A stretch of DNA of 64,000 nt. Origin: a virus. Positions 30,425 to 47,261 of the stretch are shown here, piece after piece. Where the stretch lies: the IMG/VR virus record IMGVR_UViG_3300024270_000061. The stretch is one strand, 5' to 3'. The notes below the pieces were generated by a model. The model was given only the letters and a program-made list of their open reading frames with translations, did no database searches and was not told the DNA's origin. The position numbers and the translations under genes were made by a program. Each line of letters starts with the position of its first letter. Position 1 is the stretch's first letter.

Positions 30425-30436
30425 ATCAATCTCTCC

Positions 30437-31054
30437 TTAATGCTCGTTGAAGCAAACCGCTTCCCCATTTTTCAAATCCCAACAGGAACACCCAGACATA
30501 ACACAGTCCCCGCAATAATTCTGGCATTGGAAGGCGTTTGCCGGTATGCCTGTATTGTCGCCTTTCTTGAATCTGACATAGGCCATTGGGAGGTTGTGAG
30601 GATTTTCGGGAATAAAAGAACCCCACGCACTAAATACCATGCGGAGGTTCTCAGGAAAAACTTTATGTATGTTGAGATACTCATTGACCATCTCAAATTT
30701 CTTGGTGAAGCACAGGAACTTCGTATCAGGAAGCCTCTTCGCGGTATCCACCATCATCTCAAGGTACTTAATATCGGGAATATCGCCCGAGGAGTGCCAG
30801 CGAAAGAAGCGGCTATGGAACGCAGAAATGATGATGTCACGCTGGAACATCGCAGGATCTTCATTCCAAATATCGATGTTCTTCTGGAGAAGAGACTTGT
30901 TGTGGGAAAAGCACCACCGTCCCTTCCTGGCATAACACTTAGCCACGCACGGAGCATCTGGTCTGCATGAGCAGACAGGAGGAAGGCTGACGGATGGAAT
31001 ATCTGCGCCGAGCTTCGTTACTCCTTTGGAAATATGAACATGTTCTGTTACCAT
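30437..31054 (-). CDS. hypothetical Cys-rich protein (205 aa)
   Basis: CSCRPDAPCVAKC and CQNYCGDCVMSGCSC clusters. Confidence 0.45.
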   Translation of the reverse strand: MVTEHVHISKGVTKLGADIPSVSLPPVCSCRPDAPCVAKCYARKGRWCFSHNKSLLQKNIDIWNEDPAMFQRDIIISAFHSRFFRWHSSGDIPDIKYLEMMVDTAKRLPDTKFLCFTKKFEMVNEYLNIHKVFPENLRMVFSAWGSFIPENPHNLPMAYVRFKKGDNTGIPANAFQCQNYCGDCVMSGCSCWDLKNGEAVCFNEH

Positions 31055-31072
31055 AGCTTACCTCTTTCTTGA

Positions 31073-31567
31073 TTACATCTTGGGCAATTCGTAGAGCGTT
31101 ACGTCCAAGCCCCCGAGTTCTTCTTCGATGATTGTATAGACGGTATCCCAGTTGCCGCCTCCTCGGTCGCAGCCAATTCGATAAGGCAATGCGATTTGAG
31201 GTTCTTTGCCCGATTTTTGCCGGATGGCATCAGCAAAAATGCTCAGCTGAGCCAAGCAACTTCTGAATGCCCCATAGTCCGTATATTGCTTGCCATCATA
31301 TCCGTACTTATTCTGAGCGAACATATTGGCGATATAAATCCGCTTGCCATCCGGAAGATTCTCGGATGATAGCTGCGTGTTTCCCAGCAAGCTCTCTGTC
31401 TTTCCTTTGACACTTCGGCAAGCACTTTGATAGTTGGCGTATGCGCCTGGAAATAACATCCGAACCTGCTTGGCAACGCCGGAACCCATCACTCCCTGGC
31501 AATTTACCTGATGAGCAATGATGTCGGCATTACTTGCGAATAAATCTCCGATTTTATGTTGTATCAT
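31073..31567 (-). CDS. macro-domain protein (ADP-ribose binding/processing)
   Basis: IIAHQVNCQGVMGSGVAKQ and the macro-domain core. Confidence 0.8.
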   Translation of the reverse strand: MIQHKIGDLFASNADIIAHQVNCQGVMGSGVAKQVRMLFPGAYANYQSACRSVKGKTESLLGNTQLSSENLPDGKRIYIANMFAQNKYGYDGKQYTDYGAFRSCLAQLSIFADAIRQKSGKEPQIALPYRIGCDRGGGNWDTVYTIIEEELGGLDVTLYELPKM

Positions 31568-31721
31568 TGGACTTCCTCACTCTTCAACAGATGGATTTTT
31601 CGCGTCTTTCTCATTTCGTTCGGAATCTCCGCTTGCTTTACAACAGCAATACATGAGAATACCGGCGAAAAGAACGAGAACCATCGAGATTGCAAACAGC
31701 AAAAGTCTTCCTGACATCTAA

Positions 31722-32153
31722 TCACTTCTTTCCGTCTGCGATAATAGAGTTTTCTCCGGCATCGCAAGCTCGCTTGTAGTAGACGCGACCTTCCATTTTG
31801 CTTTCCGCCTTCCTCATCGCTCCAAGACACTGCTTTAGCTGATTGACCGCATTGGTTTGAGACGCAATCCAGTTCATCAATGGTGTCAGCGTATCAATAA
31901 TGTCTTTGGCGACTCGGCGGCGTTGGCGAATTTTTCGAAGCTCCACCGCCGCATGAGCACGTTCATGATACGTCCACTCGCAAAGTTCAATTTCATGAAG
32001 CAGATCCTGCGTCTTTTTATCGCAGTAATCCAATTCATTTTGAGCCATTTTGAGGGACTCATTAGCCAAAGAAAACATATTCAGTGTCTCTTCAATGGAC
32101 TGGCTCGTTACTTGAGGAGTGAGCTTATCCAGATCGTCAAGCACTGCGTTCAT
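31722..32153 (-). CDS. hypothetical coiled-coil protein
   Basis: ORF; internal ATG start after the Pnkp stop. Confidence 0.4.
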   Translation of the reverse strand: MNAVLDDLDKLTPQVTSQSIEETLNMFSLANESLKMAQNELDYCDKKTQDLLHEIELCEWTYHERAHAAVELRKIRQRRRVAKDIIDTLTPLMNWIASQTNAVNQLKQCLGAMRKAESKMEGRVYYKRACDAGENSIIADGKK

Positions 32154-34344
32154 TGACTGCCTCCTGATAATACTTGTTTCGGAGTTCGACAATGTTGGTA
32201 GAAGGATTACTCTCGGCATACTTTCTGACGAAAGCATAGAAATAATTCGTCAACGGAGTTTGCAAAGCGCCGGTGTTACGGAACTGTCCATAGTTGAATA
32301 CGCTTTGGGCTACTCCGCGAAGAAGTTTCCATGTGGCGTAATAATCCGTCTTGATCTTGAGCATGAATCCGACAGCATCTCTGATGACATATCCTTCAAA
32401 GGGAATGGCATCGGGACGGGCAAGAAGATTCTGAGAATTCTGATACAGGGAAAGGAATTCTTCCCAGTTATTGATGACACAGGCTCTCTTTTTCACTTCC
32501 AGTCCAAGCTCTTCTGCGGCACTGACGAGTTGAACATAGCTGCAAGCCGAGAATTCCAGTTGGTTTTCCACCATGTCCAGAAGATAGAGATGCTTCTCTC
32601 GGTATTCAATGATGTGTGGATCATTGACGGGATCAACCGCCTCGAACAGGAGCGTTACATCATGTTTCTTCAGGTACTCTGTCAGCCTCTGCTTCTGCTC
32701 ATCAGTGAACATGGAACGGAAAAGTTCTGCCATCGCACCGTCAACAGAAGACTTGGTGGTCATGAACAAGGAGCCCGTAGACTGGTCATAAGAAACCAGC
32801 CCGAGGAAACCATTCTCTTTTTCGAAGACTTCAACAGGGAACACGAGTTTCTTCTGAAGCACAGACAGCTTGGTGTTCTGTCTTTCGTTGACTGCGAAGA
32901 ATTTTTCATATCCACGAGCCACAACCTTCATGTTGGTGGTGTCGATATACAAACCGCGAGCACGAACTGTAAGCGAATTCCACTTCTTATCCATAAAGGC
33001 TGCCCGAGTGAAGTTGAAGGAAGAAATATGACCGAAGGACTTTTCATGAATGAGGGGACTCTGCCGCATCCTCGCAACGAGATCGGAAATGATCTCTCTT
33101 TCAGTAGATGCAACGGGTTGCGCATCTTTGGGTGGCTGAACAACGGGCTGTTCGGCGGAGGGATAATTAACCACCTTCCAGCCTTCTTCAGACAGGACGA
33201 CGGTTCTCAGCTCTCCTCCACGTTCTACAGCGCCTTCGAGACAGAAACAATGTTCCGAAACATGAGTCGGCAAACCGGAAACATTGCGATGACCGAACAC
33301 CTGATAATACATGGGCGGAGCGGATTTTTCAAAGGACTCAACACATTCCTCCATCTGCTCGTAAAAGCCAACGCCGGAAATCATCTGGCAGGCAGGAACA
33401 AAGTCGAGATGGCCGAGAGAAGACCAGTCTGAAATACCTCCATGAGTGCAGAGTACAGTGCGACCACGATATGTATAATAGGAACACTGTCGGATACGGC
33501 GGTAGAATTTTCTTATTTCTACCATGGAAATGCCGGCTGCATCAAGCTGGAATCCAGTCTTCGAATTGAACTCCCTTGAAGCAGATTGGCGACCGTTCGC
33601 CCACTCCCACAGATGAACCTCGTGATTTCCTTCAAGGAAACACACATTGGGGCGTTCTGAAATATCCATGAGGAACTGAAGAACCTTCGGAGAATCCGGG
33701 CCGCGATCAGCATAATCTCCGCAGAAAATATAGGCGGTCTTATCATCGATGCCATCCACAGGATTTTCCCCGAACACCTTCTGGAGAGTGGAGTAGCATC
33801 CGTGAATATCACCGATGTGTACGACCTTATCATATTCGCTCAAATCGAAAGGAGTAGTAAATATCTGCTCCCAATCATCGACGGTGATTCTCTTGATTCC
33901 GGCTGGAATATTCTGTGTCTGGAAACGTGAGTATACCTTTTCAATGTAGTCCTGTGGAACGATTTTGAGCGGAGGCCGCTGGGCGTTACGGCGGAGGGTT
34001 TCCTCCAGAGGAATATCCGTCATGTCCAGGCAATAGATCCGATAGCGGTATTGATGCGCCAATTCTTTGTAGCGCGTCATTTCGCTCGTCTTGGAATTGC
34101 AGGCATCGATAATCGTGAAATCACCGCGCTGCATCCTGCGTTCAAGCATGGCAAACAAGGTATCCCAGACAATTCTATCGTTCTTCTGGGATATGACGGG
34201 CTTACCTTGTGGATCAAGTGCCGGGGAGGCAAAAAGGGAACGAATCTTATCAGACGAAAGTGCATGGTCAGACAGGCCGTTCTTCTCAATCCAAGTGGAT
34301 TTGCCGCAACCTGGAGCACCGCGCATCAAAATGAGAATTCGCAA
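32137..34344 (-). CDS. Pnkp-like RNA repair enzyme: P-loop kinase, binuclear metallophosphatase and ligase-like adenylyltransferase
   Basis: N-terminal GAPGCGKST; central GDIHG, GDYADRG, GNHE; C-terminal KENG (KxNG) lysine motif. 735 aa. Confidence 0.75.
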   Translation of the reverse strand: MRILILMRGAPGCGKSTWIEKNGLSDHALSSDKIRSLFASPALDPQGKPVISQKNDRIVWDTLFAMLERRMQRGDFTIIDACNSKTSEMTRYKELAHQYRYRIYCLDMTDIPLEETLRRNAQRPPLKIVPQDYIEKVYSRFQTQNIPAGIKRITVDDWEQIFTTPFDLSEYDKVVHIGDIHGCYSTLQKVFGENPVDGIDDKTAYIFCGDYADRGPDSPKVLQFLMDISERPNVCFLEGNHEVHLWEWANGRQSASREFNSKTGFQLDAAGISMVEIRKFYRRIRQCSYYTYRGRTVLCTHGGISDWSSLGHLDFVPACQMISGVGFYEQMEECVESFEKSAPPMYYQVFGHRNVSGLPTHVSEHCFCLEGAVERGGELRTVVLSEEGWKVVNYPSAEQPVVQPPKDAQPVASTEREIISDLVARMRQSPLIHEKSFGHISSFNFTRAAFMDKKWNSLTVRARGLYIDTTNMKVVARGYEKFFAVNERQNTKLSVLQKKLVFPVEVFEKENGFLGLVSYDQSTGSLFMTTKSSVDGAMAELFRSMFTDEQKQRLTEYLKKHDVTLLFEAVDPVNDPHIIEYREKHLYLLDMVENQLEFSACSYVQLVSAAEELGLEVKKRACVINNWEEFLSLYQNSQNLLARPDAIPFEGYVIRDAVGFMLKIKTDYYATWKLLRGVAQSVFNYGQFRNTGALQTPLTNYFYAFVRKYAESNPSTNIVELRNKYYQEAVNERSA

Positions 34345-35696
34345 GAGAACACCTCCTTGTTTTCATTCAAGTAATTGACAATATGGACACGTTCATTTTT
34401 CAAAGAGCCATCAATTACAGCATCAAGAACCTTGTTCAGAACAAAGCCGACTCTTTTCCCTTCCGCTATATTGAGCAACTCCATTACATCTTTTCCGCTG
34501 ATTTCCAAATCTTTCAGACTAAAGCATTGGTTTTGCTCGACAATCTCATAGGCAATAGCTGCCAGAGATACGCAGCGTTCAATTCGAGACTGCTGAGTGC
34601 TCTCCTTATGAGCGAGAATATCAGCCATTCTGATTTCAACCAGTCTTGAAAATTGGAGTTCACCGATTTTGTTCAACCATCGGCGCACTGTCTTCGGGGT
34701 AGGCTCAATAACGGCATCGTGGAACAACACAAGTTCGAGTACGTCATGCTTGGTTTTGTTGTCAAAACGCAATCTGTCAAGAACCTTTTCGGCAAGATCT
34801 CGACTGTATACTCCGTGACCATAGAAGTGCCCTCCGTTTTCATCCGTGGTATAGCAACATGGCTTGCCAATATCATGAAGGAATAACGAGAGCTTTATAA
34901 CAATGTCATTTAATCCGCAGTTTTCTACGGCATGACAAATGTGATCGTATACGGTGTACTCGTGATACCTGTTATTTTGGTCAAATCCAATGCAGGGACT
35001 CATTTCTGGAATGATGACAGAGATAACATCGCTATACTCCAGTAAGATTTGAAGAACTCCTCGACCACAGAGCATCTTGCATAGCTCGGTCTGAATTCTC
35101 TCTGCTGCAATGTTCAGGAGCTTTTCTTTATTCCTATGGATTGCCTGAGATGTTTTCTCTTCAATGGCAAAACCATATGTAGAAGCAAAGCGCATTGCTC
35201 TCAGGATTCGAAGCGCATCTTCTCCGAATCTGTCATCTGGATTTCCAACGCATGAAATGATTCTTCTATTCAGGTCGTCCTGACCATGAAAAGGATCGAT
35301 AATTCTTTCTCCGTCATAGGCCATTGCATTAACAGTGAAATCACGGCGTGCTAAATCCAGCTCTATGTTTTTCACGAATTCTACACTATCAGGATGTCGG
35401 CTATCAGAATAAAGTCCGTCAATTCTGAAAGTCGTAACCTCATACTGCTCAGAATCCCCGAGATTAACCGTGATTGTTCCGTGCTGTAAGCCTGTATCAA
35501 TCGTCTTGATATTGCGTTTTGCGAAGAAAGCCTTCATTTCAAGAGGAGTGGCTGATGTGCAAATATCCCAGTCTTTCGGTTCAAGGTCAAGCAAGCTGTC
35601 TCGCACGCATCCACCAACGACATAGGCATCAAACCCGGCCTTGCGCAAATCCTGTATGATGAAATTGGCGCCGTGCGGGATTTGGATATTACGCAT
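34326..35696 (-). CDS. cca: CCA-adding tRNA nucleotidyltransferase with HD domain
   Basis: GGCVRDSLL head motif; RRDFTVNAMA; HD LFLHDIGK. Confidence 0.85.
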   Translation of the reverse strand: MRNIQIPHGANFIIQDLRKAGFDAYVVGGCVRDSLLDLEPKDWDICTSATPLEMKAFFAKRNIKTIDTGLQHGTITVNLGDSEQYEVTTFRIDGLYSDSRHPDSVEFVKNIELDLARRDFTVNAMAYDGERIIDPFHGQDDLNRRIISCVGNPDDRFGEDALRILRAMRFASTYGFAIEEKTSQAIHRNKEKLLNIAAERIQTELCKMLCGRGVLQILLEYSDVISVIIPEMSPCIGFDQNNRYHEYTVYDHICHAVENCGLNDIVIKLSLFLHDIGKPCCYTTDENGGHFYGHGVYSRDLAEKVLDRLRFDNKTKHDVLELVLFHDAVIEPTPKTVRRWLNKIGELQFSRLVEIRMADILAHKESTQQSRIERCVSLAAIAYEIVEQNQCFSLKDLEISGKDVMELLNIAEGKRVGFVLNKVLDAVIDGSLKNERVHIVNYLNENKEVFSCEFSF

Positions 35697-36711
35697 CGAT
35701 AGCTCTCCTGTTCACTTCGATAACAAATTCCTCGACCTTCTTCATGTCCGGATGCTTTGGGAGGTTGGTATTTGCCTTCGCATATTCCAGACGCTTCTCG
35801 TATTCGCTCACCATCTCAAAGAATTCAGGCGCATATGAACCGTCTTCGCGCTGAAATTTACCGTTTCGGATACTGAGCAGAAAATCTCTGTCGTTGTATC
35901 GATAGGTGTTGATTTCGCCTTTCTCCAAGATGTCCAGACACAGAAGATAGAGACGAATCAGGTGCATGGCGTGCTTGTTGAGATGATCGTCGTCCTTCTT
36001 ATGATTGCGATGGTGCAACTTCTCGTAATCTCGAAGTACACTGGACAGGGTGTTAAGCATGATGCTGAACTCTCTGGCAGGATACTTTTCAAGGTGAATG
36101 TTGCAGAACACTTCCTTATCAAGATCGTCACGAGAACTCTCGTCGGTAAAGAGGCTGATACAACCCTGATCGAAATCGGAATACTTGGAAGCGAATTCCC
36201 GAAGGGCTCGTTCCAGTGCCCCTCTGATGTGTTCCTCTTTCTTTGCCTGCGGCAACCTGTCTCTGGCGAGCGCGTTTTCCAAACGGCGAAGCTGCTGAGT
36301 AGCATATCCTCCGAACGAACTGACCGCTCTTTGCGAAAGGAACAGGCTTGCGTTGTCGATCATCATGCGGCCTGCATCGGAAACATAAAAATAATGCTCC
36401 GGTTTGCAGCCGAGCATTTCAATCGTATTGGGATTGCAGTTCAGAAGCAAGCTGACCAGTTTGTTGAAGCCATAGATGGTAGTGTCGGTCTGCGTGTTTA
36501 CGACCTGTTCAAAATTTGAGAGGCCGAGAAGATCACTCTTGCTGTTCATTGCACAGCCTCTTACATCTACATCCGATGTTTCAATGTTGGTTCCATAGGC
36601 ATGACTTCCGCCAAGCGTAAGGAACATAAGTCGGCCTGCGAGGTGAGGATTGGTTCGCAAGAAGTCATATTCCTCTCCGTTTACCATTTCTTTGATTTGC
36701 TCAAGAGTCAT
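35689..36711 (-). CDS. Pol-beta superfamily nucleotidyltransferase of unknown specificity
   Basis: LGGSHAYGTNIETSDVDVRG (GS...DxD) motif. Confidence 0.55.
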   Translation of the reverse strand: MTLEQIKEMVNGEEYDFLRTNPHLAGRLMFLTLGGSHAYGTNIETSDVDVRGCAMNSKSDLLGLSNFEQVVNTQTDTTIYGFNKLVSLLLNCNPNTIEMLGCKPEHYFYVSDAGRMMIDNASLFLSQRAVSSFGGYATQQLRRLENALARDRLPQAKKEEHIRGALERALREFASKYSDFDQGCISLFTDESSRDDLDKEVFCNIHLEKYPAREFSIMLNTLSSVLRDYEKLHHRNHKKDDDHLNKHAMHLIRLYLLCLDILEKGEINTYRYNDRDFLLSIRNGKFQREDGSYAPEFFEMVSEYEKRLEYAKANTNLPKHPDMKKVEEFVIEVNRRAIDA

Positions 36712-37168: not shown

Positions 37169-38662
37169 TCAGAAATTGCCGAACCACAAGATGTTGCGAA
37201 TATCCGACAGAGAATACTCTTTCAGCATCTTGCCATCGCGGAAAACAGGAATCAGAAGATTCATGGGGTCGTCGTTGTGTTCAGCAAAGGTCAGGCCATC
37301 AACGCAGGAAAAATCCTTTCCATCGAAATGCACGGCGCAGCATCCTCGCTGAGATTTCTTGAAGTGCGCGTTATCCGTCTTGGGATTTTTGAAAATCATG
37401 ATGGGGGTTCCATTCTCGTCTTCTGCATAAGTTGCCTTAATGGCAATGCCAAAGGTATCACGAGTAAATGGATCGAAGTGACGGACACCGTTCTGGTCAT
37501 AATGTTCAAGGCACTGCATTGAGAAAGAGCCGACGCCAAGAGAAACATTATTACATGCAAAACCATTCTGCGTCAGGATTTCATAGATCTTTTCGCAGCG
37601 TTCCGGTGTAATGGAATCACCGTAAATGGCTTTGACGTGAGGATCAAGAACCTTATAGCCCTTGGAATTGACCGTACCACCAAACGTTTCCCAAAGATGG
37701 AAGACAGTCTGGGTAACAATCTCAACAGGATCACCGCTGTCTCCGCGAACCAGAAGGCATCCATCATGATTCATGATCTCATCCTTCAGCTGAGGAAGAA
37801 TGTTATCCACCAGATTCCAGTAATCATAAGAATCGGATACCATCGAGAAAGAATGATGAGGATAGATTTCCGTAAGCAGTCGGCGAACGAAAGTAATTTC
37901 GTCTCCATCGACAGCGTAATTTGAACACATTACACTGTGTTCGGTAGAAATCGCGCCGAATGCAACGGGTTCCTTGGTACAATCGCAGTTGTAATACTTC
38001 TCAAGCCATGGAAGAGTCGGAACGGTTGCAGTATTCAGGAACGAAAGGCAGAAACCAGCGCTGGACATTACCGCACTTTCGATACTCTCCTGACCTCTCA
38101 TGGAGAAATCACCAAGAGCTTTGGCACGAGGAAAAGAATCATCGACGGTCTTATCGTAATACTTATTGACGATGTTTCGATACATAACACCAACGTTTGC
38201 ACTTACCATAGCGTGCCAAAGCGTGGCAGAGATCGCTGATTCAATGGTATTGACCAGCCATGCAAACTTAGGATGAGTATTGGAAATCTCGAACATAGGA
38301 ACCTTGATGTTCACACGGCAACCTTCGGGCAGTGCCCGAATCTCAAGAGGCAAATAGCCCAGATCGTAAAGCTCCTCGATCTTTTTGAGATTGTAGGAAT
38401 TCTTTCCGAGGCCGTTGTCAACGATGCGAGCATATTCTGCCAACACCTCATCCTTCGGACGAGAGAAAAAGAAATCATCAAAGCATTCGATGAGATACGT
38501 TTTGATGAATGCCTGCAGGCCAAACATAACGAGCTTATTTTGACCTTCCAGGCGGGACATCCTGGGCGTAAAATACGATACCAGCTTCGTGACATTCTTA
38601 GGGTACATGTCGGAATGTACCACCTTGTACCAGTCACACAGCAAAAGCGGATTAAGTTTCAT
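37169..38662 (-). CDS. nadV: nicotinamide phosphoribosyltransferase (Nampt/NadV)
   Basis: N-terminal LCDWYKVVHSDMYP; 497 aa; family-typical length. Confidence 0.85.
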   Translation of the reverse strand: MKLNPLLLCDWYKVVHSDMYPKNVTKLVSYFTPRMSRLEGQNKLVMFGLQAFIKTYLIECFDDFFFSRPKDEVLAEYARIVDNGLGKNSYNLKKIEELYDLGYLPLEIRALPEGCRVNIKVPMFEISNTHPKFAWLVNTIESAISATLWHAMVSANVGVMYRNIVNKYYDKTVDDSFPRAKALGDFSMRGQESIESAVMSSAGFCLSFLNTATVPTLPWLEKYYNCDCTKEPVAFGAISTEHSVMCSNYAVDGDEITFVRRLLTEIYPHHSFSMVSDSYDYWNLVDNILPQLKDEIMNHDGCLLVRGDSGDPVEIVTQTVFHLWETFGGTVNSKGYKVLDPHVKAIYGDSITPERCEKIYEILTQNGFACNNVSLGVGSFSMQCLEHYDQNGVRHFDPFTRDTFGIAIKATYAEDENGTPIMIFKNPKTDNAHFKKSQRGCCAVHFDGKDFSCVDGLTFAEHNDDPMNLLIPVFRDGKMLKEYSLSDIRNILWFGNF

Positions 38663-38675
38663 ATTTCCCTTCCTT

Positions 38676-39485
38676 TCATTTGTTCAGGGGGAAAACGGTG
38701 ATCTTCTCGTGTTCTTTGTGGAAGATACTGTCCGTGGTATAGACATGATCCACAAAATCCGTCGTCAGCAAATCACCCTCAAAGATTGCATGTTCGCAGT
38801 GGGAACAGAAAACCGAAACGCTTTTCGCGCCAAGTTCTTTAAGGGCTTTTGCGGAATGAAAAAACGTGCCGCCGCGACAACAGATGTCATCCACGATCAG
38901 CACGTTCTTGCCCTTGATGTCGGCATTACAAACAACATCGAGGCCGGTAATCTTTCCAGTTTCCCAGCAGCGACGTTTAATGCCGAATCCGTATGGAGTT
39001 TTAATCATATCAGAATAGCGCTTCATAGCGCCTTCATCCGGGTAGAACAGAAGCAAATCGGGATCATCCATATTTCCCATCGCCTTGCGAATATAAGGCT
39101 CTGGGGACAGGATCTTGCAGTTGTTGATGAGCGCAGTTGCAACATTGGAATGAGGATCGAGGATATACACCGCCTTAAAGCCCAGCATGTTGATAAAGTC
39201 GGCAAAATACTTCAGCGTAAAGACTTCATAATCATGATGCGTTCTGTCCATTCTGGCATTCGGACAATACGGAAGAACGAGCGAGACGCCCTTAAAAGCG
39301 GAATGCTGCCAAAGATGACGGACAATGTAGTAAAGCGCTGTCATTTCATCTTCGCTCTCATAATGCCAGCGGATTACTGCCTCGCCTCCATTGTAGGCAA
39401 CATCGGGGCTGGAAACTCCAAACGCGAAAGTTCCGTCTGGAAACCGGCTGTCCAGCTGGATGCGGTAATTGTTCAGCCAAATCAT
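38676..39485 (-). CDS. prs: ribose-phosphate pyrophosphokinase (PRPP synthetase)
   Basis: PRPP-binding VLIVDDICCRGGTFFHSAKAL. Confidence 0.8.
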   Translation of the reverse strand: MIWLNNYRIQLDSRFPDGTFAFGVSSPDVAYNGGEAVIRWHYESEDEMTALYYIVRHLWQHSAFKGVSLVLPYCPNARMDRTHHDYEVFTLKYFADFINMLGFKAVYILDPHSNVATALINNCKILSPEPYIRKAMGNMDDPDLLLFYPDEGAMKRYSDMIKTPYGFGIKRRCWETGKITGLDVVCNADIKGKNVLIVDDICCRGGTFFHSAKALKELGAKSVSVFCSHCEHAIFEGDLLTTDFVDHVYTTDSIFHKEHEKITVFPLNK

Positions 39486-39500
39486 AGCTAACCCCTCCGT

Positions 39501-40130
39501 TTAGCCGTTGATGATCTTGATGTTACAGGGAGCCATAGCGTCGAGCGCCGTTTTGTGAGATTCGGGAGATACACAAGCGCAGCAAGCTGCGTCCACGATG
39601 ATCTCTGCCTCGGGAAGCACAGCGCGAAGCAGCATGGCGTTGCTCAGCACGCAAATGCCCGTACAGACTCCGCAAAGAACGATACGGTCATACTGTTCAT
39701 CGCTTGCTACATTAGAGAGAACAACGCTTCCGAAGGTGGGCTTATTGAGCATGGCGAAAAAATGACCAGAGCCAGCACAGTTCATCTTCGAATAGGATTT
39801 TTGTACGTCCTCGTTGATCTGCCAACCATCACTGTTCTGAATACAGTGAGGAACCGGGAGCATTTTGCCTTCAGCCGTGTCCATGTAGTTGTCTTGGTGC
39901 GTGTCTCTGGTCATGATGATGTCGCCCTGCCAGCCTTCGATTTTCTCGCAGACCTTGGGCACGATTGCCTTGGCCTCGTCTGTGCCAAGGACACCTGTTA
40001 CGAAGTCGTTTTGCATGTCAACGACTACAAGAAGTTCCTTCAAATTCCTTTCCTCCTTGATATGTTTTAGATGATGTTCGTCATCTATGACCTCGGCTTT
40101 TCTTGTCGAAACTGCCAGGGTCATGCCCAA
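39501..40130 (-). CDS. pncA: isochorismatase-family nicotinamidase (PncA-like)
   Basis: VVDMQNDF, DTH, and catalytic Cys in VLCGVCTGICV. Confidence 0.75.
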   Translation of the reverse strand: MGMTLAVSTRKAEVIDDEHHLKHIKEERNLKELLVVVDMQNDFVTGVLGTDEAKAIVPKVCEKIEGWQGDIIMTRDTHQDNYMDTAEGKMLPVPHCIQNSDGWQINEDVQKSYSKMNCAGSGHFFAMLNKPTFGSVVLSNVASDEQYDRIVLCGVCTGICVLSNAMLLRAVLPEAEIIVDAACCACVSPESHKTALDAMAPCNIKIING

Positions 40131-40736: not shown

Positions 40737-40827
40737 TGGCGGAGAGAGTGGGATTCGAACCCACGGACGGCGCGGAGCCGTCGGCGGTTTTCAAGACCGC
40801 TGCCTTAAGCCGCTCGGCCATCTCTCC
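40737..40827 (-). tRNA. tRNA-Ser (anticodon UGA), class II, CCA encoded
   Basis: RC: GGAGAGATGGCCGAGCGG...CTTGAAA...GGTTCGAATCC...CGCCA. Confidence 0.8.
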
Positions 40828-40835
40828 ATTACGGG

Positions 40836-41042
40836 TCAGTTTTTTGTAAAAGGTATAACCACTTCTTTAAGAGCTTGAATTCTATCGAAACGGTCATTGC
40901 GGCCATCAACCCAGCGTTCTTTACCACAGCGTTTACAGCGATATTTCCGCATTGAGAATCGAACATTGCCGTCAGTAGATTCAAACCAACTTACTTTAAC
41001 GAACTTATGTCTGCAGAATAATGAGATAAGCCATTTTTTCAT
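40836..41042 (-). CDS. small zinc-ribbon protein
   Basis: CKRCGK; basic. Confidence 0.35.
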   Translation of the reverse strand: MKKWLISLFCRHKFVKVSWFESTDGNVRFSMRKYRCKRCGKERWVDGRNDRFDRIQALKEVVIPFTKN

Positions 41043-41053
41043 ACTGCGTCTCC

Positions 41054-41353
41054 TTAGAACTTTCCAAGTATAACGGCCTTATCGGATATGTATTCGCCGT
41101 TAATGGTATTGAAGTATTGACCGATCGGGCGAACAAGATAGACGATTGGATTTCCTCCGTACTTAATACAGGCTTTCTTGGCAAATTTCTGAGCAGTAGC
41201 AAGAGACGTTGTGAAGAAAACCTTATCTTCGTACTTCTTCCTCCAATGTTCACGCTTGCAATTCGTGATGATGGGAGGCAAGAGAATTTTGTGAATTTGG
41301 AGAGAATCCGTAGTTCCATGATAGAAAACTTTAGTATTCGCCGGAAAATTCAT
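41054..41353 (-). CDS. mini ART-fold protein resembling the C-terminal NAD-binding lobe of Tpt1/KptA
   Basis: VFYHGTTDSLQIHKIL ... KVFFTTSLATAQKFAKKACIKYGGNPIVYLV resembles KptA LYHGTASRFLDEI...YVHLSAD...GSPVIL. No N-terminal RNA-binding lobe is present. Confidence 0.4.
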   Translation of the reverse strand: MNFPANTKVFYHGTTDSLQIHKILLPPIITNCKREHWRKKYEDKVFFTTSLATAQKFAKKACIKYGGNPIVYLVRPIGQYFNTINGEYISDKAVILGKF

Positions 41354-41609
41354 GTTCAATGACCTCGCATCCGTGGGCGGCGTCTTCGATGAGCCCAATC
41401 AAAAGAGCTTCTACGTCATCAAGAAGGTTTGCATAGGTACTCCCGTAAAGCCCAACCATATTGTCCGAATCTCTTTCTTCGTCCTCCGGACTGGGGATAC
41501 GGACATTATGCTGCTCAAGAATTTCTTCGAACATATCGATAATTCTTGCCGCTTCGTCATGCGTATAGATGGTCTTTCTATCCGAATCAGATTTGACTAT
41601 ACCCGTCAT
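41331..41609 (-). CDS. acidic hypothetical protein
   Basis: ORF. Confidence 0.35.
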   Translation of the reverse strand: MTGIVKSDSDRKTIYTHDEAARIIDMFEEILEQHNVRIPSPEDEERDSDNMVGLYGSTYANLLDDVEALLIGLIEDAAHGCEVIEHEFSGEY

Positions 41610-41838
41610 CGTACTCCTCCTTGATGATTTCTTGTCCTCTGCATCCTCTTTCGAGTCAAGCGGCTTGGAACGCTTCTTGCTGCATTACAAGCGGCAGACA
41701 GCCCAGTCCTACTATCTGCCGGATGTCCAGCTGTACTGGTTGGAGGGAACGCGATACTCCTGGCAAGCGCGAGCCTGTCTCCATCAAGCTCGTAAATGCG
41801 CTTTCATGCCCTGTCAATAACCAAGTGTATCGCAGCAG

Positions 41839-41914
41839 TGGTCTTCCTGGCGGGACTCGAACCCGCGACTCCTTGATTAAAAGTCAAGTGCTCTACCAAC
41901 TGAGCTACAGGAAG
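41839..41914 (-). tRNA. tRNA-Lys (UUU), CCA encoded
   Basis: RC: CTTCCTGTAGCTCAGTTGGTAGAGCACTTGACTTTTAATCAAG...GGTTCGAGTCCCGCCAGGAAGACCA. Confidence 0.85.
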
Positions 41915-41918
41915 GTAA

Positions 41919-41993
41919 TGGCGGCTCGTCAGGGATTCGAACCCCGAACCTATCGGTTAACAGCCGAGTGCTCTACCTTTGAGCTAACGAGCC
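41919..41993 (-). tRNA. tRNA-Asn (GUU), CCA encoded
   Basis: Anticodon loop CTGTTAA; T arm GGTTCGAATCC. Confidence 0.8.
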
Positions 41994-42031
41994 ATGATGC
42001 CACCGCCATTGTCGTAGAGGTGGCAAACAGA

Positions 42032-42223
42032 TTAGAATAACCGCTTTCCGCAAGTCGGGCAGCGGTAGATGGTGAAATTTCCGATCTTATAATCGGTTCC
42101 ATTGGTTTTGCAGTTGATCGGAAGATATTCGTTATCCCATTTCAGGCGATGGATTTCTCTTCCGTTCTTATCGACTTCGGCAACATATGGAACATAGCCT
42201 TTCGGATTGCATACACTGCACAT
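42032..42223 (-). CDS. zinc-ribbon small protein
   Basis: CSVCN ... CPTCGK. Confidence 0.35.
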   Translation of the reverse strand: MCSVCNPKGYVPYVAEVDKNGREIHRLKWDNEYLPINCKTNGTDYKIGNFTIYRCPTCGKRLF

Positions 42224-42536
42224 AAATCACGCACCTTCTTCCAGAAGATCGTCTTCAGTCATTTCATCCATGTCGCTTCTCATCGCCTGAAGTTTTCTCT
42301 GATCCGAAATCTTGTTGCTGGACATAGAATTCGGGCTACCTCCCCATGACTTGCGGGGATTGCACATACAGCAGGAGCAGTGAATCTTGTTCTTGGAATA
42401 TTGATGAAGATTGTCATACCAGTCTCCACCCATAATGTTCCTGACGATGGAACGCTTGCGTTTTGCATGTTTCCAATCCATCTTTCTGGAACGACCTCTG
42501 TTATTCGGCTTCATGCTATCACTCCTTGCTAAAGAA

Positions 42537-42629
42537 TGGCGGAAGGTGTGAGATTCGAACTCACGGTGCCCGAATTTCAGGCACGCCTGATTAGCAATCA
42601 GGTGCATTAAGCCACTCTGCCAACCTTCC
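42537..42629 (-). tRNA. tRNA-Ser (GCU), class II, CCA encoded
   Basis: Anticodon loop TTGCTAA; long variable arm. Confidence 0.8.
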
Positions 42630-42632
42630 AGA

Positions 42633-42707
42633 TGGAGCTCCCATTCGGATTTGAACCGAAAACCAATCGCTTACGATGCGATTGCTCTGCCGTTGAGCTA
42701 TAGGAGC
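42633..42707 (-). tRNA. tRNA-Thr (CGU), CCA encoded
   Basis: Anticodon loop ATCGTAA; T arm GGTTCAAATCC. Confidence 0.75.
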
Positions 42708-42975
42708 ACTTGTGTCTACAATTTCAATCGAACTTCCGATTTCTTCTCCAGCGCCTGCACCAACAGAAATCGCAATCCAGATACCCGACACGATGCCCGT
42801 CGATTTTGCACACCGAAGAACCATGCGCCACATGTTCTCGATTGCCACAACTTCCGCAGCAGCGCCCTTCTCTTACGTCGTCTGAAGCGTATACTTTCAG
42901 GCCGTTGTTGCTATTGCGAGTATCATAAGAAAGACATATGAGCAACGAGAACACCTCCTAAAATGATTGATGAAA

Positions 42976-43052
42976 TGGAGCCGGATATGGGACTCGAACC
43001 CATGACCCTGCGCTTACAAAACGCACGCTCTGGCCATCTGAGCTAATCCGGC
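42976..43052 (-). tRNA. tRNA-Thr (UGU), CCA encoded
   Basis: Anticodon loop TTTGTAA; T arm GGTTCGAGTCC. Confidence 0.75.
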
Positions 43053-43057
43053 ATGTG

Positions 43058-43133
43058 TGGTGGCCTCTGCTGGTAACGATCCAGCCTCCGTAGATTTTCA
43101 GTCTACTGCTTTCACCATGTAAGCTAAAAGGCC
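43058..43133 (-). tRNA. tRNA-Phe (GAA) candidate with atypical T-loop ATCGTTA
   Basis: RC: GGCCTTTTAGCTTACATGGTGAAAGCAGTAGACTGAAAATCTAC...GCTGGATCGTTACCAGCAGAGGCCACCA. Confidence 0.5.
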
Positions 43134-43140
43134 AAGTAAA

Positions 43141-43217
43141 TGGTGCCGAGGGTGGGACTTGAACCCACAAATCGCAGATTTTGAGGCTGCTTCCTATGCC
43201 ATTTCGGATACCCCGGC
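43141..43217 (-). tRNA. class-I tRNA with a CAA anticodon in loop CTCAAAA (identity ambiguous), CCA encoded
   Basis: RC: GCCGGGGTATCCGAAATGGCATAGGAAGCAGCCTCAAAATCTGCGATTTGTGGGTTCAAGTCCCACCCTCGGCACCA. Short variable arm. Confidence 0.55.
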
Positions 43218-43380
43218 TTGTGTGTTTCCCGCTTAGATTGAACATTGTATCCTTTGGGTCACGGCTACTCAGATCAAGCCGAACATTTGCAACTGTCCAG
43301 TTCCAATGCTTTTCAGCGGACATTTTCATTCTCTGTGAGGAATCCACAACGCTCACATCAGCAGGGAGCGACCCTGCATT

Positions 43381-43463
43381 TGGTATGGATGAAGGGATTC
43401 GAACCCTTACGCTTACGCACTGGGACTTAAAACCAGCGTGCCTGCCAATTACACCACATCCAC
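43381..43463 (-). tRNA. tRNA-Leu (UAA) candidate, class II, CCA encoded
   Basis: Anticodon region CTGGTTTTAAGTCCCAG; variable-arm hairpin TGCGTAAGCGTA; T arm GGTTCGAATCC. Confidence 0.6.
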
Positions 43464-43739
43464 TTAGTCTATTTTGTTGCGCCATTCATCATAGCTGGGA
43501 GGAGACATACCCTCATACTCATCGCTGTTATGGTCAATTGCCCATTGTACGAGGAACAAAAGATACCGCTCCCAACGCACGTCATAATCGTCCAGCAATG
43601 CACAATTGGTCAACCTCATGCCACTTTGTTCGAGCCATCCGAATTCATGCTCAAGCATTTCTATCGGAGGAAGCTCGGCTGTTGGCTCCTCTTGATAATT
43701 GATAATTGCAACGAAGGTTCTTTCATCCACCGCTATCAA
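43464..43739 (-). CDS. hypothetical protein (91 aa)
   Basis: ORF. Confidence 0.4.
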   Translation of the reverse strand: MIAVDERTFVAIINYQEEPTAELPPIEMLEHEFGWLEQSGMRLTNCALLDDYDVRWERYLLFLVQWAIDHNSDEYEGMSPPSYDEWRNKID

Positions 43740-43806
43740 CCTTTCCTATGGAAAGGCACCCCGCCACAATGAACGGGGTGCCAAGAGAATATGTGTTTAT
43801 GTACAA

Positions 43807-45300
43807 TTAGTGCTTGTCGGCAATAGCTCCACCAAGCATACCGGACAGCAGAGCCATCAGATCCAGACCGGTTGCATCCTTGAAGCCGTCTTGCACCTGC
43901 TTCATACCGGTCGTAACCGTGCCGGTCAGATTGGAGGTGCCGCCCTCGTAGATGGTCATGTTGTCGATGCTTTCCATGGGCTTCGCAATTGCCGCTGCAA
44001 TGTCCGGCATGGTCTTGACGTATTCCAACGCGACGTCCAGAACCATCTGCTGCTTCGCGGCATCGTCGTATTCCTTCATGGCTTCCGCCTTCTTCAGAAT
44101 ACCAACAGCTTCAGCCTCCGCTTTAGCCTGGATGGCTTCGGCTTCAGCGCGACCCTTTGCGGCAACGCCTGCCGCCTCGTTCTCCATAGCAATACGCTCT
44201 GCTTCGGAACGCGCCTTTTCGGCGGCGGCTCTTTGTTCAGCTTCGAACAGCTCAGCGTCTGCCTTCTTCTGTCGCTGGAAAAGCTCAGCCTCTGATGCCT
44301 TCTGAAGTTCGTACAGACGAGCGTCGGCTCTCTGCTGAGCAGCATACTTGTCTGCTTCAGCCTTCTTCTTGATCTCGGCATCCAGAGCGCGTTCACGGAT
44401 GGCGACTTCACGTTCCTTCAGCTCAATCTCCTTTTCCAGACGAGCCAAGTTAGCCTCGGCAGTCTTAGTTTCGATAGAAGCACGCTGTTCCTGCTCCTGA
44501 ATGGAATAAGCAGCATCGGCTTCTGCTCGCTTGGCATCCTCGATCTTTTTCAGTTCGGCTCTCTGGATTGCCAATTCGTTCTTGCGCTTAGCAATCTCTT
44601 GCTCAGACTTGACCTGAGCTTCGTTGGCAGCCATAGCGGCCTGCGCTCTGGCAATGGCAATTTCCTTTTCGGCCTGAGCCTTGGAAACAGCCGCATCCTT
44701 GGAAATCTGAACCGTGTTTTCCAGACCCAGATTATCAATGACGCCGTTGCGATCCTTGAAGTTCTGGATGTTGAAGGTGGTCAGCTCCAAGCCCATATCA
44801 CGCAGATTGGGCGTTACGTTCTCAATGATGCGTTCAGCGAAAGTCTTCTTGTCGCCCTGAATGAGTTCTTTCAGAGTGGTCTGAGAAATAATTTCGCGGA
44901 TGTTGCCTTCGAGAACGGGAGTGATGATTTCCTTGATTTGCTCGGGCTTATAGCCAAGGAACTTGGATGCTGCAATCTTCAGCAGTTCGGGTTCTTTGGA
45001 AATCGCCACGTTGGCCACCGCATCAACCATAATATTGATTGCGTCCTTGGTGGGAATCTCATCGCGGGAAGTAAAGTCGGACTGAATGTTTTCGAGCGAC
45101 ATGTAGTCAACTCGCTGGATAATGGGGATGACAAGAGCGCCCTGACCAATGATGGTTCTCGAACCACGCGGGCCGGTGATGACCATTGCAATGTTCGGGG
45201 GAGCCTTCTTGTACATAACCTTGCCGATGAAGACAACCAAGAGGACTGCGGCGATGAAACAACCAACAAAAACAGCGGCAGACATGATAGATTCGAGCAT
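43807..45300 (-). CDS. flotillin/SPFH (band 7) family membrane protein with a long EA-rich coiled coil
   Basis: N-terminal TM helix, an SPFH-like core (ITGPRGSRTIIGQGALVIPIIQ...) and a roughly 200-aa A/E/K-rich coiled coil. AAAGGAGA RBS. Confidence 0.75.
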   Translation of the reverse strand: MLESIMSAAVFVGCFIAAVLLVVFIGKVMYKKAPPNIAMVITGPRGSRTIIGQGALVIPIIQRVDYMSLENIQSDFTSRDEIPTKDAINIMVDAVANVAISKEPELLKIAASKFLGYKPEQIKEIITPVLEGNIREIISQTTLKELIQGDKKTFAERIIENVTPNLRDMGLELTTFNIQNFKDRNGVIDNLGLENTVQISKDAAVSKAQAEKEIAIARAQAAMAANEAQVKSEQEIAKRKNELAIQRAELKKIEDAKRAEADAAYSIQEQEQRASIETKTAEANLARLEKEIELKEREVAIRERALDAEIKKKAEADKYAAQQRADARLYELQKASEAELFQRQKKADAELFEAEQRAAAEKARSEAERIAMENEAAGVAAKGRAEAEAIQAKAEAEAVGILKKAEAMKEYDDAAKQQMVLDVALEYVKTMPDIAAAIAKPMESIDNMTIYEGGTSNLTGTVTTGMKQVQDGFKDATGLDLMALLSGMLGGAIADKH

Positions 45301-45409
45301 TCTGATTCTCCTTTGGTTCTATTTAAGTTCCCGCTGATACCAGCTCCGAGGATCACCCATCGCCCTGATAAGACTAATGCGAAAACCTTGAATCGGAGAT
45401 TTGATATAG

Positions 45410-45502
45410 CTTTAACCCTTGACCCTTAACGCTTGAGCTTTATTGCGTATAAACTTTAATGCCTAAGCCTTACACTTTGAGCTTTATGCTTTGAGCTTTG
45501 AG
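45410..45502. repeat. degenerate tandem heptamers (CTCAAAG on the minus strand; GCTTTGAG / CCTTAAC on plus) upstream of the flotillin gene
   Basis: Plus strand: ...cccttgacccttaacgcttgagctttatt...ctttgagctttatgctttgagctttgag. Confidence 0.7.
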
Positions 45503-45530
45503 ACAAAAAACAAGCGCTCCTGGCTTGTTT
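45501..45530 (-). terminator. Rho-independent terminator
   Basis: Stem AACAAGC/GCTTGTT with loop GCTCCTG, followed on the minus strand by TTTTTTGT. Confidence 0.7.
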
Positions 45531-45673
45531 CTCTATGCTTTGCATAGCATCTTCATATTATATCGCAACCCAAATGCGTTTCCCTGTTTACATTTATTTG
45601 GCATTCGTCCAAACAGGGGAAAGTGTCGAATGAGCCTATCGTTTAGGGTTTTCAGTAACAGCGGAATCTTATT

Positions 45674-46321
45674 TTACTTGGTATCGTAGCTGACAGTGAT
45701 GGTAGTCAGCGCATTGCTTACGCTCAGCGCAGCATCAATTTCAGCATCGAAAGCATCGATCTGCTCACTGAGCTGTTCGACCTTGGCTTTGATGTCAAGG
45801 GGATCGACCATATCCAGAGAGTTCATTTCGATGTATGCTTCACGGGTCTTAATGGCTTCGTCACTCTTTGCCTTTTCACTGTTGGCAAACAGGCCGGAAA
45901 CATAGGCGTCTGCCTTAGCCTGAAGCTCATCTCCGTTGGTGCGCTTGAAGTCCAGCGTTGCGGCAGCGAACTGCACTGTCATCTGCTTGACAAGCAGACG
46001 CAGGTTTTCCATGCCGGTCTTCTTCATCTCAATGGCTTCTGCAACCGTATAGGACTTGCCGCCAATGGTCACTTTGGTCTGGGCATTGGAGATGGACAGC
46101 GCATTACGGATCGCCGCTCTGCGATTGATACGAGCAATGATGCTTTCATAATCGCTCTTCATGCCATCCTTGTAGTCACCGACAGGCTTGCCGGCAATCT
46201 TATCATTAGAATGCTTGTTCGTGGTAATAAAAGTCGTGCCACGAATCTGATTCTGGATTCGATCATCCAGAATCTTGAGGGTGCTGAGAGCCTGATGGAC
46301 AGTCATGGTTTCCGTAGTCAT
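45674..46321 (-). CDS. hypothetical protein (215 aa)
   Basis: ORF. Confidence 0.5.
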   Translation of the reverse strand: MTTETMTVHQALSTLKILDDRIQNQIRGTTFITTNKHSNDKIAGKPVGDYKDGMKSDYESIIARINRRAAIRNALSISNAQTKVTIGGKSYTVAEAIEMKKTGMENLRLLVKQMTVQFAAATLDFKRTNGDELQAKADAYVSGLFANSEKAKSDEAIKTREAYIEMNSLDMVDPLDIKAKVEQLSEQIDAFDAEIDAALSVSNALTTITVSYDTK

Positions 46322-46349
46322 GTAAATACCCCTTCCTTTTCTTCTGAGT

Positions 46350-46424
46350 TGGCTGTGGCGGTTGGGTTCGAACCAACGAATGCGGGAGTCAAAGTCCCGT
46401 GCCTTACCGCTTGGCTACGCCACA
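46350..46424 (-). tRNA. tRNA-Gln (UUG), CCA encoded
   Basis: U1-A72; anticodon loop CTTTGAC; T arm GGTTCGAACC. Confidence 0.8.
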
Positions 46425-46427
46425 ATG

Positions 46428-46502
46428 TGGTGGAGGATAAGGGGCTCGAACCCTCAACCTTCCGCTTGCAAAGCGGATGCTCTACCTTTGAGCTAATCCC
46501 CC
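46428..46502 (-). tRNA. tRNA-Ala (UGC), CCA encoded
   Basis: G3-U70 identity pair; anticodon loop TTTGCAA. Confidence 0.85.
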
Positions 46503-46783
46503 AGGTTGCACAGCGACCAATCTTCATCTCCAATGTCATGCTGAATTAAGGTGGACATGGAACAAGCGTCCTTGCGTGAGCTCCCACAGGCCAAGTGCCA
46601 TATCTCTCAATGTTCTATTAGCCCTTAATCCCTCTGCGTAATTCGTCTTATGAGTGCATTCCATCAGTTAGAAAAACCGATCCTGCGCATGGCGGCTTCT
46701 ATTCAGTTTTGAAAGGACGTATAAAGCCGCAACGGTAGTCCGTTTTCGCAGCTACGGATGTCTAATTTGTGCTGCGTCAGCGT

Positions 46784-46857
46784 TGCGCCCGAAGGGAATC
46801 GAACCCTTGACCACGCAGTTTCCCCTGCGTGACTCTACCAACTGAGTTACGAGGCGC
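46784..46857 (-). tRNA. tRNA-like gene with an aberrant 6-nt anticodon loop (GGGAAA) and no encoded CCA; possible pseudo-tRNA
   Basis: RC: GCGCCTCGTAACTCAGTTGGTAGAGTCACGCAGGGGAAACTGCGTGGTCAAGGGTTCGATTCCCTTCGGGCGCA. Good D and T arms; 7-bp anticodon stem with a 6-nt loop. Confidence 0.45.
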
Positions 46858-47121: not shown

Positions 47122-47179
47122 TCGTAAGCGACTGCCGAAACAACCGCTACTTTTGATAGACTTACGCCTTTATGATGGC

Positions 47180-47256: not shown

Positions 47257-47261
47257 AGAAG

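Follow-up and report, generated by a model that had tools for sequence, protein, structure and literature searches.

NAD+ depletion is among the commonest strategies that bacteria use against phages, and the principal phage response known so far is NARP1. NARP1 operons carry genes that look like Prs and Nampt. The first product, Adps, turns ADP-ribose (ADPR) plus ATP into ADPR-pyrophosphate (ADPR-PP); Namat, the second, combines ADPR-PP with nicotinamide to yield NAD+ without nicotinamide mononucleotide (NMN) or an NMN adenylyltransferase (NMNAT) (10.1101/2024.02.11.579819). The system is known from phages Bas63, SPbetaL1, Fado, and ICP1 (10.1101/2024.02.11.579819), and its enzymes have been described structurally (PMC12774641, PMC13586617). 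Here we analyze a 64,000-nucleotide stretch of the virus record IMGVR_UViG_3300024270_000061, called the window below, in which positions 37169–40130 encode a PncA-like, a Prs-like, and a Nampt-like protein. All positions are those of the whole window, whose genes are oriented on the minus strand; each feature given below lies on that strand unless stated otherwise. An earlier note, made from the DNA letters alone, had described these genes together with nadE and a pncC-like gene as a NAD+ salvage set in which a nadV-prs pair makes NMN that awaits adenylylation. The five gene families and their coordinates were confirmed with Pfam and NCBIfam, and the three genes are contiguous with gaps of 15 nt (pncA-adps) and 13 nt (adps-namat). 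The NMN-making pair is superseded by an Adps/Namat pair that would attach the base directly to ADPR-PP. We lean toward the reading that this locus encodes a four-enzyme NARP1 variant running through deamidated intermediates and made up of PncA, Adps, a variant Namat, and a displaced NadE.

Family membership of the Prs-like and Nampt-like proteins

The Prs-like gene (38676–39485) encodes a 269-residue protein with weak matches to Prs-family Pfam profiles. The protein falls below all NCBIfam Prs cut-offs, with a TIGR01251 score of 110.5 bits against a cut-off of 113. By blastp it is 43% identical to SPbetaL1 Adps (E = 2.6e-45) compared to 28% for E. coli Prs. The biochemically characterized SPbetaL1 Adps is among its best phage matches, and it is as similar to canonical Adps proteins as these are among themselves. 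The catalytic lysine is retained (window K170, SPbetaL1 K162, ICP1 K185), and the position is lysine in 99 of 99 related Adps sequences. In the structures of ICP1 Adps (PMC13586617), a remodelled PP loop and the loss of the a11-a12 module set the enzyme apart from PRPS. Alignment gives the PP loop of the window protein as DDIC..GGTF (DDICCRGGTF), with F208 equivalent to F221, and the protein has neither the Prs N-terminal helix nor the C-terminal a11-a12 module. ICP1 Adps F92, which contacts the adenine of ADPR, was dropped as a family marker; it is absent from both the window protein and SPbetaL1 Adps. The window protein matches PHROG 619 at 1.8e-70. A 547-position profile, phrog_12872, aligns its first half with the Adps-like protein and its second half with the Namat-like protein, an indication that some phages encode Adps-Namat fusions. 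By these sequence comparisons the 269-residue protein is a member of the Adps family and not a Prs, and it is predicted to catalyze ADPR + ATP -> ADPR-PP + AMP.

The Nampt-like gene (37169–38662) encodes a 497-residue protein that matches PF04095 (NAPRTase) at 6.9e-22 and NAMPT_N at 2e-08. Its best PDB sequence matches are 9W5X and 9W5W (6.3e-118, 398 bits), which are the structures of SPbetaL1 Namat with nicotinamide and with NAD+ (PMC12774641); human NAMPT matches at 2.9e-48. The AlphaFold2 model of the protein has a predicted local distance difference test score (pLDDT) of 91 and a predicted template modeling score (pTM) of 0.91, and a Foldseek search with this model placed 9W5X and 9W5W on top (TM 0.89–0.92), followed by Haemophilus NadV 9KE8 and human NAMPT.

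The residues around the pyridine base were then compared in SPbetaL1 Namat numbering, which is used for positions 215 and 242 throughout, with window equivalents given separately. Nicotinamide in 9W5X is contacted by F189, R192, D215, A242, R306, D13', and Y15', and D215 hydrogen-bonds the amide (PMC12774641). Five of these seven residues are invariant in the lineage to which the window protein belongs, and only D215 and A242 are altered. In the window protein they are A212 and S239, respectively, an assignment on which three independent alignments agree. The core residues D10, Y12, F186, R189, and R306 and the catalytic histidine H242 (window numbering) are invariant in 60 close homologues. 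The D215A mutation lowers the activity of SPbetaL1 Namat about 8-fold (PMC12774641). The corresponding residue of human NAMPT, D219, sets specificity for nicotinamide; D219S switches substrate affinity and D219A loses activity (PMC7096376, PMC4919578, PMC9322656). The pocket changes predict that the window Namat variant uses nicotinate. They also bear on an alternative in which nicotinamide remains the base that the variant attaches to ADPR-PP, with NAD+ as the direct product, and in which PncA, NadE, and PncC only boost host salvage or have other roles, for instance to bring down nicotinamide levels. An intact catalytic core and a closest overall match that is a characterized nicotinamide-using Namat speak for this alternative, but the aspartate that bonds nicotinamide is gone, and its replacement by alanine is the very change that impairs SPbetaL1 Namat and is among the loss-of-activity mutations of human NAMPT.

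Most residues that clamp the adenine side are kept. The retained set is R37, F380, T400, R401, and D402 in window numbering, or R40, F392, T398, R399, and D400 in SPbetaL1 Namat. R37, which aligns to R40, is the SCL stacking residue, and the residue at the F392 site is glycine in human NAMPT and alanine in HdNadV. The signature of the selectivity-clamp helix (SCH), GSX-phi-X-phi-X-phi-TRD with aromatics at positions 3 and 7, is interrupted in the window protein, which reads GSFSMQ-CLEHYDQNGVRHFDPF-TRD. Of the two aromatics, F380 at position 3 remains and the one at position 7 (Y396 in SPbetaL1 Namat) is lost. A 14-residue insertion lies in this region (residues 381–399), and the AlphaFold2 model folds residues 384–398 as a beta-hairpin, which contains a conserved P-[F/Y]. 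The canonical SCH motif is kept in the gut phage Phass-1 and in some other variant sub-lineages. The clamp motif is a site of insertion elsewhere in the family as well. Three Namat-family representatives (P0168, P0196, and P0204) carry insertions of ~300 residues exactly within the motif GS[FY]C...SHNTYQ.NTRD, and these look like inteins. Many other Namat homologues are 550–1100 residues long and match in at least two stretches with a break near residue 317.

Taken together, sequence and modeled fold indicate that the pair is Adps/Namat, of the NARP1 type, and not an NMN-producing NadV/Prs pair. The route in the earlier note was NMN-producing NadV/Prs salvage, with adenylylation left to a host enzyme, to an NMNAT encoded beyond the window, or to the nucleotidyltransferase at 35689. 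The Pfam and NCBIfam names, taken alone, do point to Nampt and Prs. However, the same annotations proved misleading for NARP1, and Osterman et al. did not find NARP1 and NARP2 together in any phage (10.1101/2024.02.11.579819). The window proteins group with Adps and Namat, and we regard the NMN route as very improbable.

The statement that the window lacks an NMNAT was borne out. A Pfam scan of 67 ORFs, comprising all minus-strand ORFs of at least 120 residues and the long plus-strand ORFs of the window, matched a cytidylyltransferase-like family of the NMNAT type in 0 of 67, and the GxFxPxHxxH motif is absent from all six frames of the window. The nucleotidyltransferase at 35689–36711 was considered as a cryptic NMNAT and rejected. 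It belongs to the RlaP family (PF10127, 5.9e-18) and sits with a CCA-adding enzyme and a Pnkp/RNA ligase in an RNA-repair block that is absent from L004, the closest syntenic relative; the suggestion that it performs the adenylylation step therefore fails. An NMNAT would be unneeded in a NARP1-type pathway because the base is attached directly to ADPR-PP and there is neither an NMN intermediate nor an adenylylation step. Under the NARP1 reading, the lack of an NMNAT in the salvage set is no longer puzzling.

Linkage of PncA and NadE to variant Namat genes

The association of the pair with other NAD+ genes was surveyed in 167 related loci, each with flanks of at most 10 kb per side, that were drawn from IMG/VR, GTDB genomes, and GenBank phages; partner genes in the flanks were identified by iterative hidden Markov model searches. 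Unique Namat-family loci with at least 4 kb on both sides were scored as full-flank loci. Those with alanine or serine at position 215 and serine at 242 have Adps, PncA, and NadE in the same co-directional cluster in 80 of 80 cases. Full-flank loci with D215 (or E215) have Adps in 28 of 28 and either PncA or NadE in 0 of 28. The association has a Fisher p of 1.6e-26, uncorrected for phylogeny, and clustering at 70% identity leaves the PncA/NadE split intact, with 15 variant clusters and 26 canonical ones. It also persists in distant sub-lineages, for example the code-15 gut phage Phass-1 (OQ749652; 33–36% identical), whose trio is annotated as nicotinamidase, ribose-phosphate pyrophosphokinase, and nicotinamide phosphoribosyltransferase. 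All four genes are co-directional in the 96 unique variant operons, the order is PncA-Adps-Namat-NadE in 90 of the 96, and NadE lies at most 1 kb from the end of the Namat gene in 86 of the 96. PncA and NadE are therefore integral, contiguous members of the same operon in the relatives, a point that the earlier note had missed. The recurrence of the same genes together in about 100 independent related loci indicates that their clustering is not due to chance.

Positions 215 and 242 covary across the family. The 150 representatives at 50% identity comprise 90 with D/A, 35 with A/S, 19 with S/S, and few others. A neighbor-joining tree built without the pocket and clamp columns places the canonical proteins in one clade of 90; the variants make up a second clade, of 37, and four small groups that are basal. 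These clade sizes make the variant a major branch of the family, and among the 50%-identity clusters of the Namat family that lie nearest the window protein its share is about one third. The variant lineage is carried chiefly by phages of Clostridia from the gut and rumen. The evidence seems to us evenly balanced on the further proposal that this Namat lineage switched its pyridine specificity from nicotinamide to nicotinate, acquiring a new reaction (nicotinate + ADPR-PP -> nicotinic acid adenine dinucleotide (NaAD)) within an obligatory four-gene operon that would replace PncB and NadD.

The linkage returns us to the alternative that the variant is a canonical, nicotinamide-using Namat accompanied by unrelated helpers. 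The positions of nadE and pncC in the window, neither of which is beside the pair, would suit this alternative. However, the nicotinamidase encoded beside it would break down the very substrate that the enzyme needs, and the contrast of 80/80 and 0/28 would be unexplained if the genes were functionally independent. We consider it quite unlikely.

The two partner proteins have features that fit the variant pathway. The PncA-like ORF (39501–40130) encodes 209 residues from the first TTG and belongs to the isochorismatase family (PF00857, 1.6e-20). Since homology is seen only from about residue 31 on, translation may in fact begin further downstream. Among solved structures the protein is most similar to the P. 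horikoshii pyrazinamidase/nicotinamidase (1ILW/1IM5, 1.2e-13). The NCBIfam equivalog score of 24 bits is far under the cut-off of 174, which marks a divergent member of the nicotinamidases. The D38/K130/C160 triad and the D76/H78/H95 metal site are at least 93% conserved in 93 unique homologues of related operons. The D/H/H metal site of nicotinamidases binds the free pyridine nitrogen, and retention of this site and of the D-K-C triad argues for free nicotinamide as the PncA substrate. The nadE gene (28467–29237) encodes a 256-residue protein that matches Pfam NAD_synthase at 6.7e-48 and scores 171.7 bits against TIGR00552 (cut-off 63.65). The P-loop S41-G-G-K-D-S46 is conserved, and the protein is a single N-type ATP pyrophosphatase domain with no glutaminase domain. 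Its best PDB matches are NH3-dependent NAD synthetases (2E18, 7.4e-33), and the second-best match is the Francisella enzyme 3FIU, which we take to be an NMN synthetase. The sequence points to a NadE of the NH3-dependent type, predicted to carry out the last step, NaAD -> NAD+.

PncA and NadE are also the first and last enzymes of the Preiss-Handler pathway, and a second alternative assigns the whole set to it. The Nampt-like enzyme would then be a nicotinate phosphoribosyltransferase that uses phosphoribosyl pyrophosphate (PRPP), from the host or from the Prs-like enzyme, to make nicotinic acid mononucleotide (NaMN). NadD, which is essential in the host, would convert NaMN to NaAD and phage NadE would finish, with PncA feeding nicotinate and PncC feeding NaMN from NMN. 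The pocket switch and the PncA/NadE linkage suit nicotinate use with either ribosyl donor, SPbetaL1 Namat accepts PRPP when ADPR-PP is absent, and human NAMPT has been crystallized with nicotinic acid and PRPP and with NaMN (6TA0, 6TA2). The insertion that disrupts the SCH clamp in the window type points the same way, and the window PncC would feed the same NaMN pool. Several observations stand against this assignment. The Prs-like gene is of the Adps family, with Adps-specific structural features and far from E. coli Prs, and SPbetaL1 Adps gives no measurable product from ribose-5-phosphate and ATP but does so with ADPR and ATP (Fig. 2D of 10.1101/2024.02.11.579819). The Namat-specific residues F392 and R40 are retained, and genes for Macro and NADAR proteins, which act on ADPR derivatives, lie inside many variant operons. 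Examination of 102 variant neighborhoods did not reveal NadD, PncB, or a niacin transporter as an extra conserved partner. No further gene family is common to more than 30 of these 102, which leaves no hidden conserved NadD, PncB, or NMNAT. We judge the Preiss-Handler alternative to be unlikely.

Operon arrangement, accessory genes, and genomic surroundings

The window differs from its relatives in the spacing of the operon. The Macro gene, nadE, and pncC lie 5.6, 7.9, and 17 kb downstream of the Namat gene, respectively. In L004 the order is PncA-Adps-Namat, about 1 kb, and then Macro-GP88-x-NadE. The window has a block of about 5.5 kb between Namat and Macro that encodes a helix-turn-helix protein, the RlaP-family nucleotidyltransferase, a CCA-adding enzyme with an HD domain (34326–35696), and a kinase-phosphatase-RNA ligase (Pnkp/RNA ligase) fusion (32137–34344). 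Relative to L004, part of an RNA-repair set appears to have been inserted into the NAD operon, which leaves NadE 7.9 kb away. This distance exceeds that of every relative, where the maximum is 3.9 kb. Further genes of this kind encode a Thg1-like protein (29206–30267), a HAD_SAK_2 protein (27792–28280), and a second RNA ligase with a PHA02142 OB-fold (20036–21112), so that RNA/tRNA-repair genes are dense at 27792–36711 and present again at 20036–21112.

Three accessory genes could connect to ADPR or to the deamidated branch. The Macro-domain protein (31073–31567) matches PHROG 335, 'phosphatase', at 2.2e-45 and Pfam Macro weakly. Among its weak PDB matches are phosphatases and Appr-1''-p processing proteins; its nearest NCBIfam family is DarG, with a score below the cut-off. 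It is 33% identical (E = 1.5e-20) to the Macro gene product that directly flanks a canonical NARP1 pair in locus L111. A Macro homologue is found in 40 of the 96 variant operons, between Namat and NadE in 35 of those. From these matches the protein is a candidate ADPR-1''-phosphate phosphatase (Adpp-like). The Macro genes inside 35 operons, which are of the NARP1-AP kind, and the retained clamp residues R40 and F392 favor the view that ADPR chemistry has been kept. The NADAR-domain protein (1231–1935; Pfam NADAR, 1.8e-26) is encoded far from the operon in the window. A NADAR homologue occurs within 10 kb in 34 of the 96 variant loci, and in 10 of those the hit falls in the same ORF as NadE. 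This apparent NadE-NADAR fusion in about 10 operons suggests that NADAR is tied to the pathway, and it is possible that the NADAR protein supplies free ADPR. The ORFs with both domains belong to loci L093–L100, L102, and L154 and lie about 1.2–1.5 kb downstream of the start of the Namat ORF match. The third gene (19467–20015) encodes a 182-residue PncC/CinA-domain protein, annotated as an NMN deamidase, with a Pfam CinA match of 2.1e-50 and a TIGR00199 (PncC_domain) score of 142 bits against a cut-off of 68.9. Of the 167 related loci, only 1 has a PncC homologue at a distance of 10 kb or less from the Namat gene, and PncC is therefore a loosely associated accessory and not a core member.

A tRNA array of 17 genes (40737–48322) lies directly upstream of the operon. 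One ARAGORN call in it (46782–46858) has an unassignable two-base anticodon ('ga'). In Phass-1 a large tRNA array that includes a suppressor tRNA adjoins the PncA-Adps-Namat trio. Amid the window tRNA genes is a 497-residue ORF (43807–45300) that was considered as a NadV paralogue; this was ruled out, and the ORF encodes a SPFH/Band-7 protein with a flotillin domain. An unannotated family of ~290-residue membrane-anchored proteins that appear SPFH/band-7-like by eye is found near 29 of the 102 variant operons. Beyond the array, a cREC_REC 'cyclic-phosphate processing receiver' protein (49022–49420, 1.9e-15) may be linked to the RNA-repair and ADPR-cyclic-phosphate theme. A reverse transcriptase (51051–52193; RVT_1, 1.8e-16) lies between two DUF6273 proteins (49647–50306 and 52560–53312). 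No template/variable repeat pair was found within 48.8–54.2 kb, and a diversity-generating retroelement is unsupported there. The region 54301–56764 has long overlapping ORFs on both strands (335/334 and 487/528 residues), higher GC, and no Pfam match. On the other side of the operon, a PemK/MazF-like toxin (23707–24144, 8e-23) is conserved in the relatives L004 and L013.

Searches at the nucleotide level gave little. A promoter and terminator scan of 36.5–40.9 kb returned counts not above those of shuffled sequence and is thus uninformative on operon boundaries. Megablast of the region against 50,697 phage records gave no match, and relatives are detectable only at the protein level. These relatives comprise viral contigs from IMG/VR together with contigs that were binned with metagenome-assembled genomes of Ruminococcus, Oscillospiraceae, Christensenella, and Herbinix, and the nearest GenBank record is a human-fecal phage scaffold. 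The window also encodes replication genes in addition to its 17 tRNA genes. Gene content and relatives are consistent with a large phage of gut Clostridia.

Proposed pathway and its relation to known systems

The four-enzyme variant would act as follows. A host NADase effector of the SIR2, TIR, or SEFIR type would cleave NAD+ to ADPR and nicotinamide. PncA would convert nicotinamide to nicotinate and NH3 (step 1), Adps would convert ADPR and ATP to ADPR-PP (step 2), the Namat variant would join nicotinate to ADPR-PP to form NaAD (step 3), and the NH3-dependent NadE would convert NaAD to NAD+ (step 4). The ammonia released in step 1 could be reused in step 4. The Macro protein, by converting ADPR-1''-P to ADPR, and the NADAR protein would probably widen the ADPR supply, and PncC may funnel stray NMN into the deamidated branch. 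Steps 1, 2, and 4 are assigned by family membership, and step 3 by the pocket switch together with the obligatory presence of PncA and NadE. From the family membership, residue changes, and gene linkage we infer nicotinate as the substrate, NaAD as the product, and an anti-defense phenotype. The broader idea in the earlier note, that the set rebuilds NAD+ from NADase breakdown products and counters NAD-depleting defenses, survives in this form, with a predicted anti-defense role.

Several points weigh against this pathway. The case for nicotinate use by the variant lineage consists of two pocket substitutions and gene linkage. The linkage itself may trace to one or two ancient events, since there are only 2 variant clusters at 50% identity. 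The 14-residue hairpin in the clamp motif and the loss of Y396 could alter ADPR-PP recognition. In the window, the distances of 7.9 kb to nadE and 17 kb to pncC leave co-expression unproven. The route costs one ATP above canonical NARP1, and the removal of nicotinamide has no obvious benefit to the phage. Finally, two loci of a single lineage of the A215/S242 type, L077 and L078 (IMG/VR 3300045988_136913 and _155743), have no Adps, PncA, or NadE in their available flanks and break a linkage that is otherwise perfect. The Namat proteins of these two loci are further altered, with R40 replaced by H, G360 replaced by E, and a very long clamp insertion.

If the four-enzyme pathway is correct, the variant would represent a new enzyme activity, a nicotinate ADPR-transferase, and NARP1 would have diversified in its substrate chemistry beyond the gain of accessory genes. 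The phages that homology now labels as 'NARP1' would split into two classes of distinct function, and the residues at positions 215 and 242 (D/A versus A/S and S/S) would provide a sequence rule to tell them apart. Gut viromes of humans and animals, from which few phages have been cultured, are rich in the variant class. The pathway would also raise the question of which selective pressure favors the more expensive route; host nicotinamidase activity, a scarcity of nicotinamide, irreversibility, and a host counter-measure against NARP1 are candidates. Full-text searches, which did not cover subscription journals, found no account of a PncA/NadE-linked or nicotinate-using NARP1, and earlier work is possible.

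The proposed pathway shares features with each of the known routes to NAD+. NARP3 (PnuC and NadR; PMC13464706) is likewise a phage-encoded restoration of NAD+ against NADase defense, but its parts are unrelated, being a nicotinamide riboside transporter and a bifunctional kinase/adenylyltransferase. NARP2 (Nampt and Nmnat, as in NadV/NatV of Vibrio phage KVP40) has in common a Nampt-superfamily enzyme and an anti-NAD-depletion purpose. NARP2 uses PRPP, makes NMN, and needs a phage Nmnat, whereas the window has Adps and a Namat-type enzyme and no Nmnat was found in it. The bacterial Preiss-Handler pathway (PncA, PncB, NadD, and NadE) has the same first and last enzymes and passes through nicotinate and NaAD, but its PncB and NadD steps are predicted to be replaced in the variant by a single transfer of nicotinate onto Adps-made ADPR-PP. 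NARP1-AP consists of NARP1 and an associated Macro phosphatase, Adpp (bioRxiv 10.64898/2026.01.28.702374). The Macro gene inside 35 of the 96 variant operons is homologous to those that flank canonical NARP1 pairs; in the window this candidate phosphatase is 5.6 kb from the pair and split off by the RNA-repair block, whereas the NARP1-AP association is within two genes. The closest system is NARP1 itself. The variant has adps directly upstream of namat, the Adps catalytic lysine, the Namat core, and most of the adenine-clamp residues, and in both cases the dinucleotide would be rebuilt from ADPR. The variant differs by the replacement of D215 and A242 with alanine (or serine) and serine, by a hairpin in the SCH motif of the window type, and by a nicotinamidase and a NAD synthetase that are obligatory in its operon. 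Its predicted base is nicotinate and its predicted product NaAD, and it would reach NAD+ in four steps using two ATP, compared to two steps and one ATP for NARP1.

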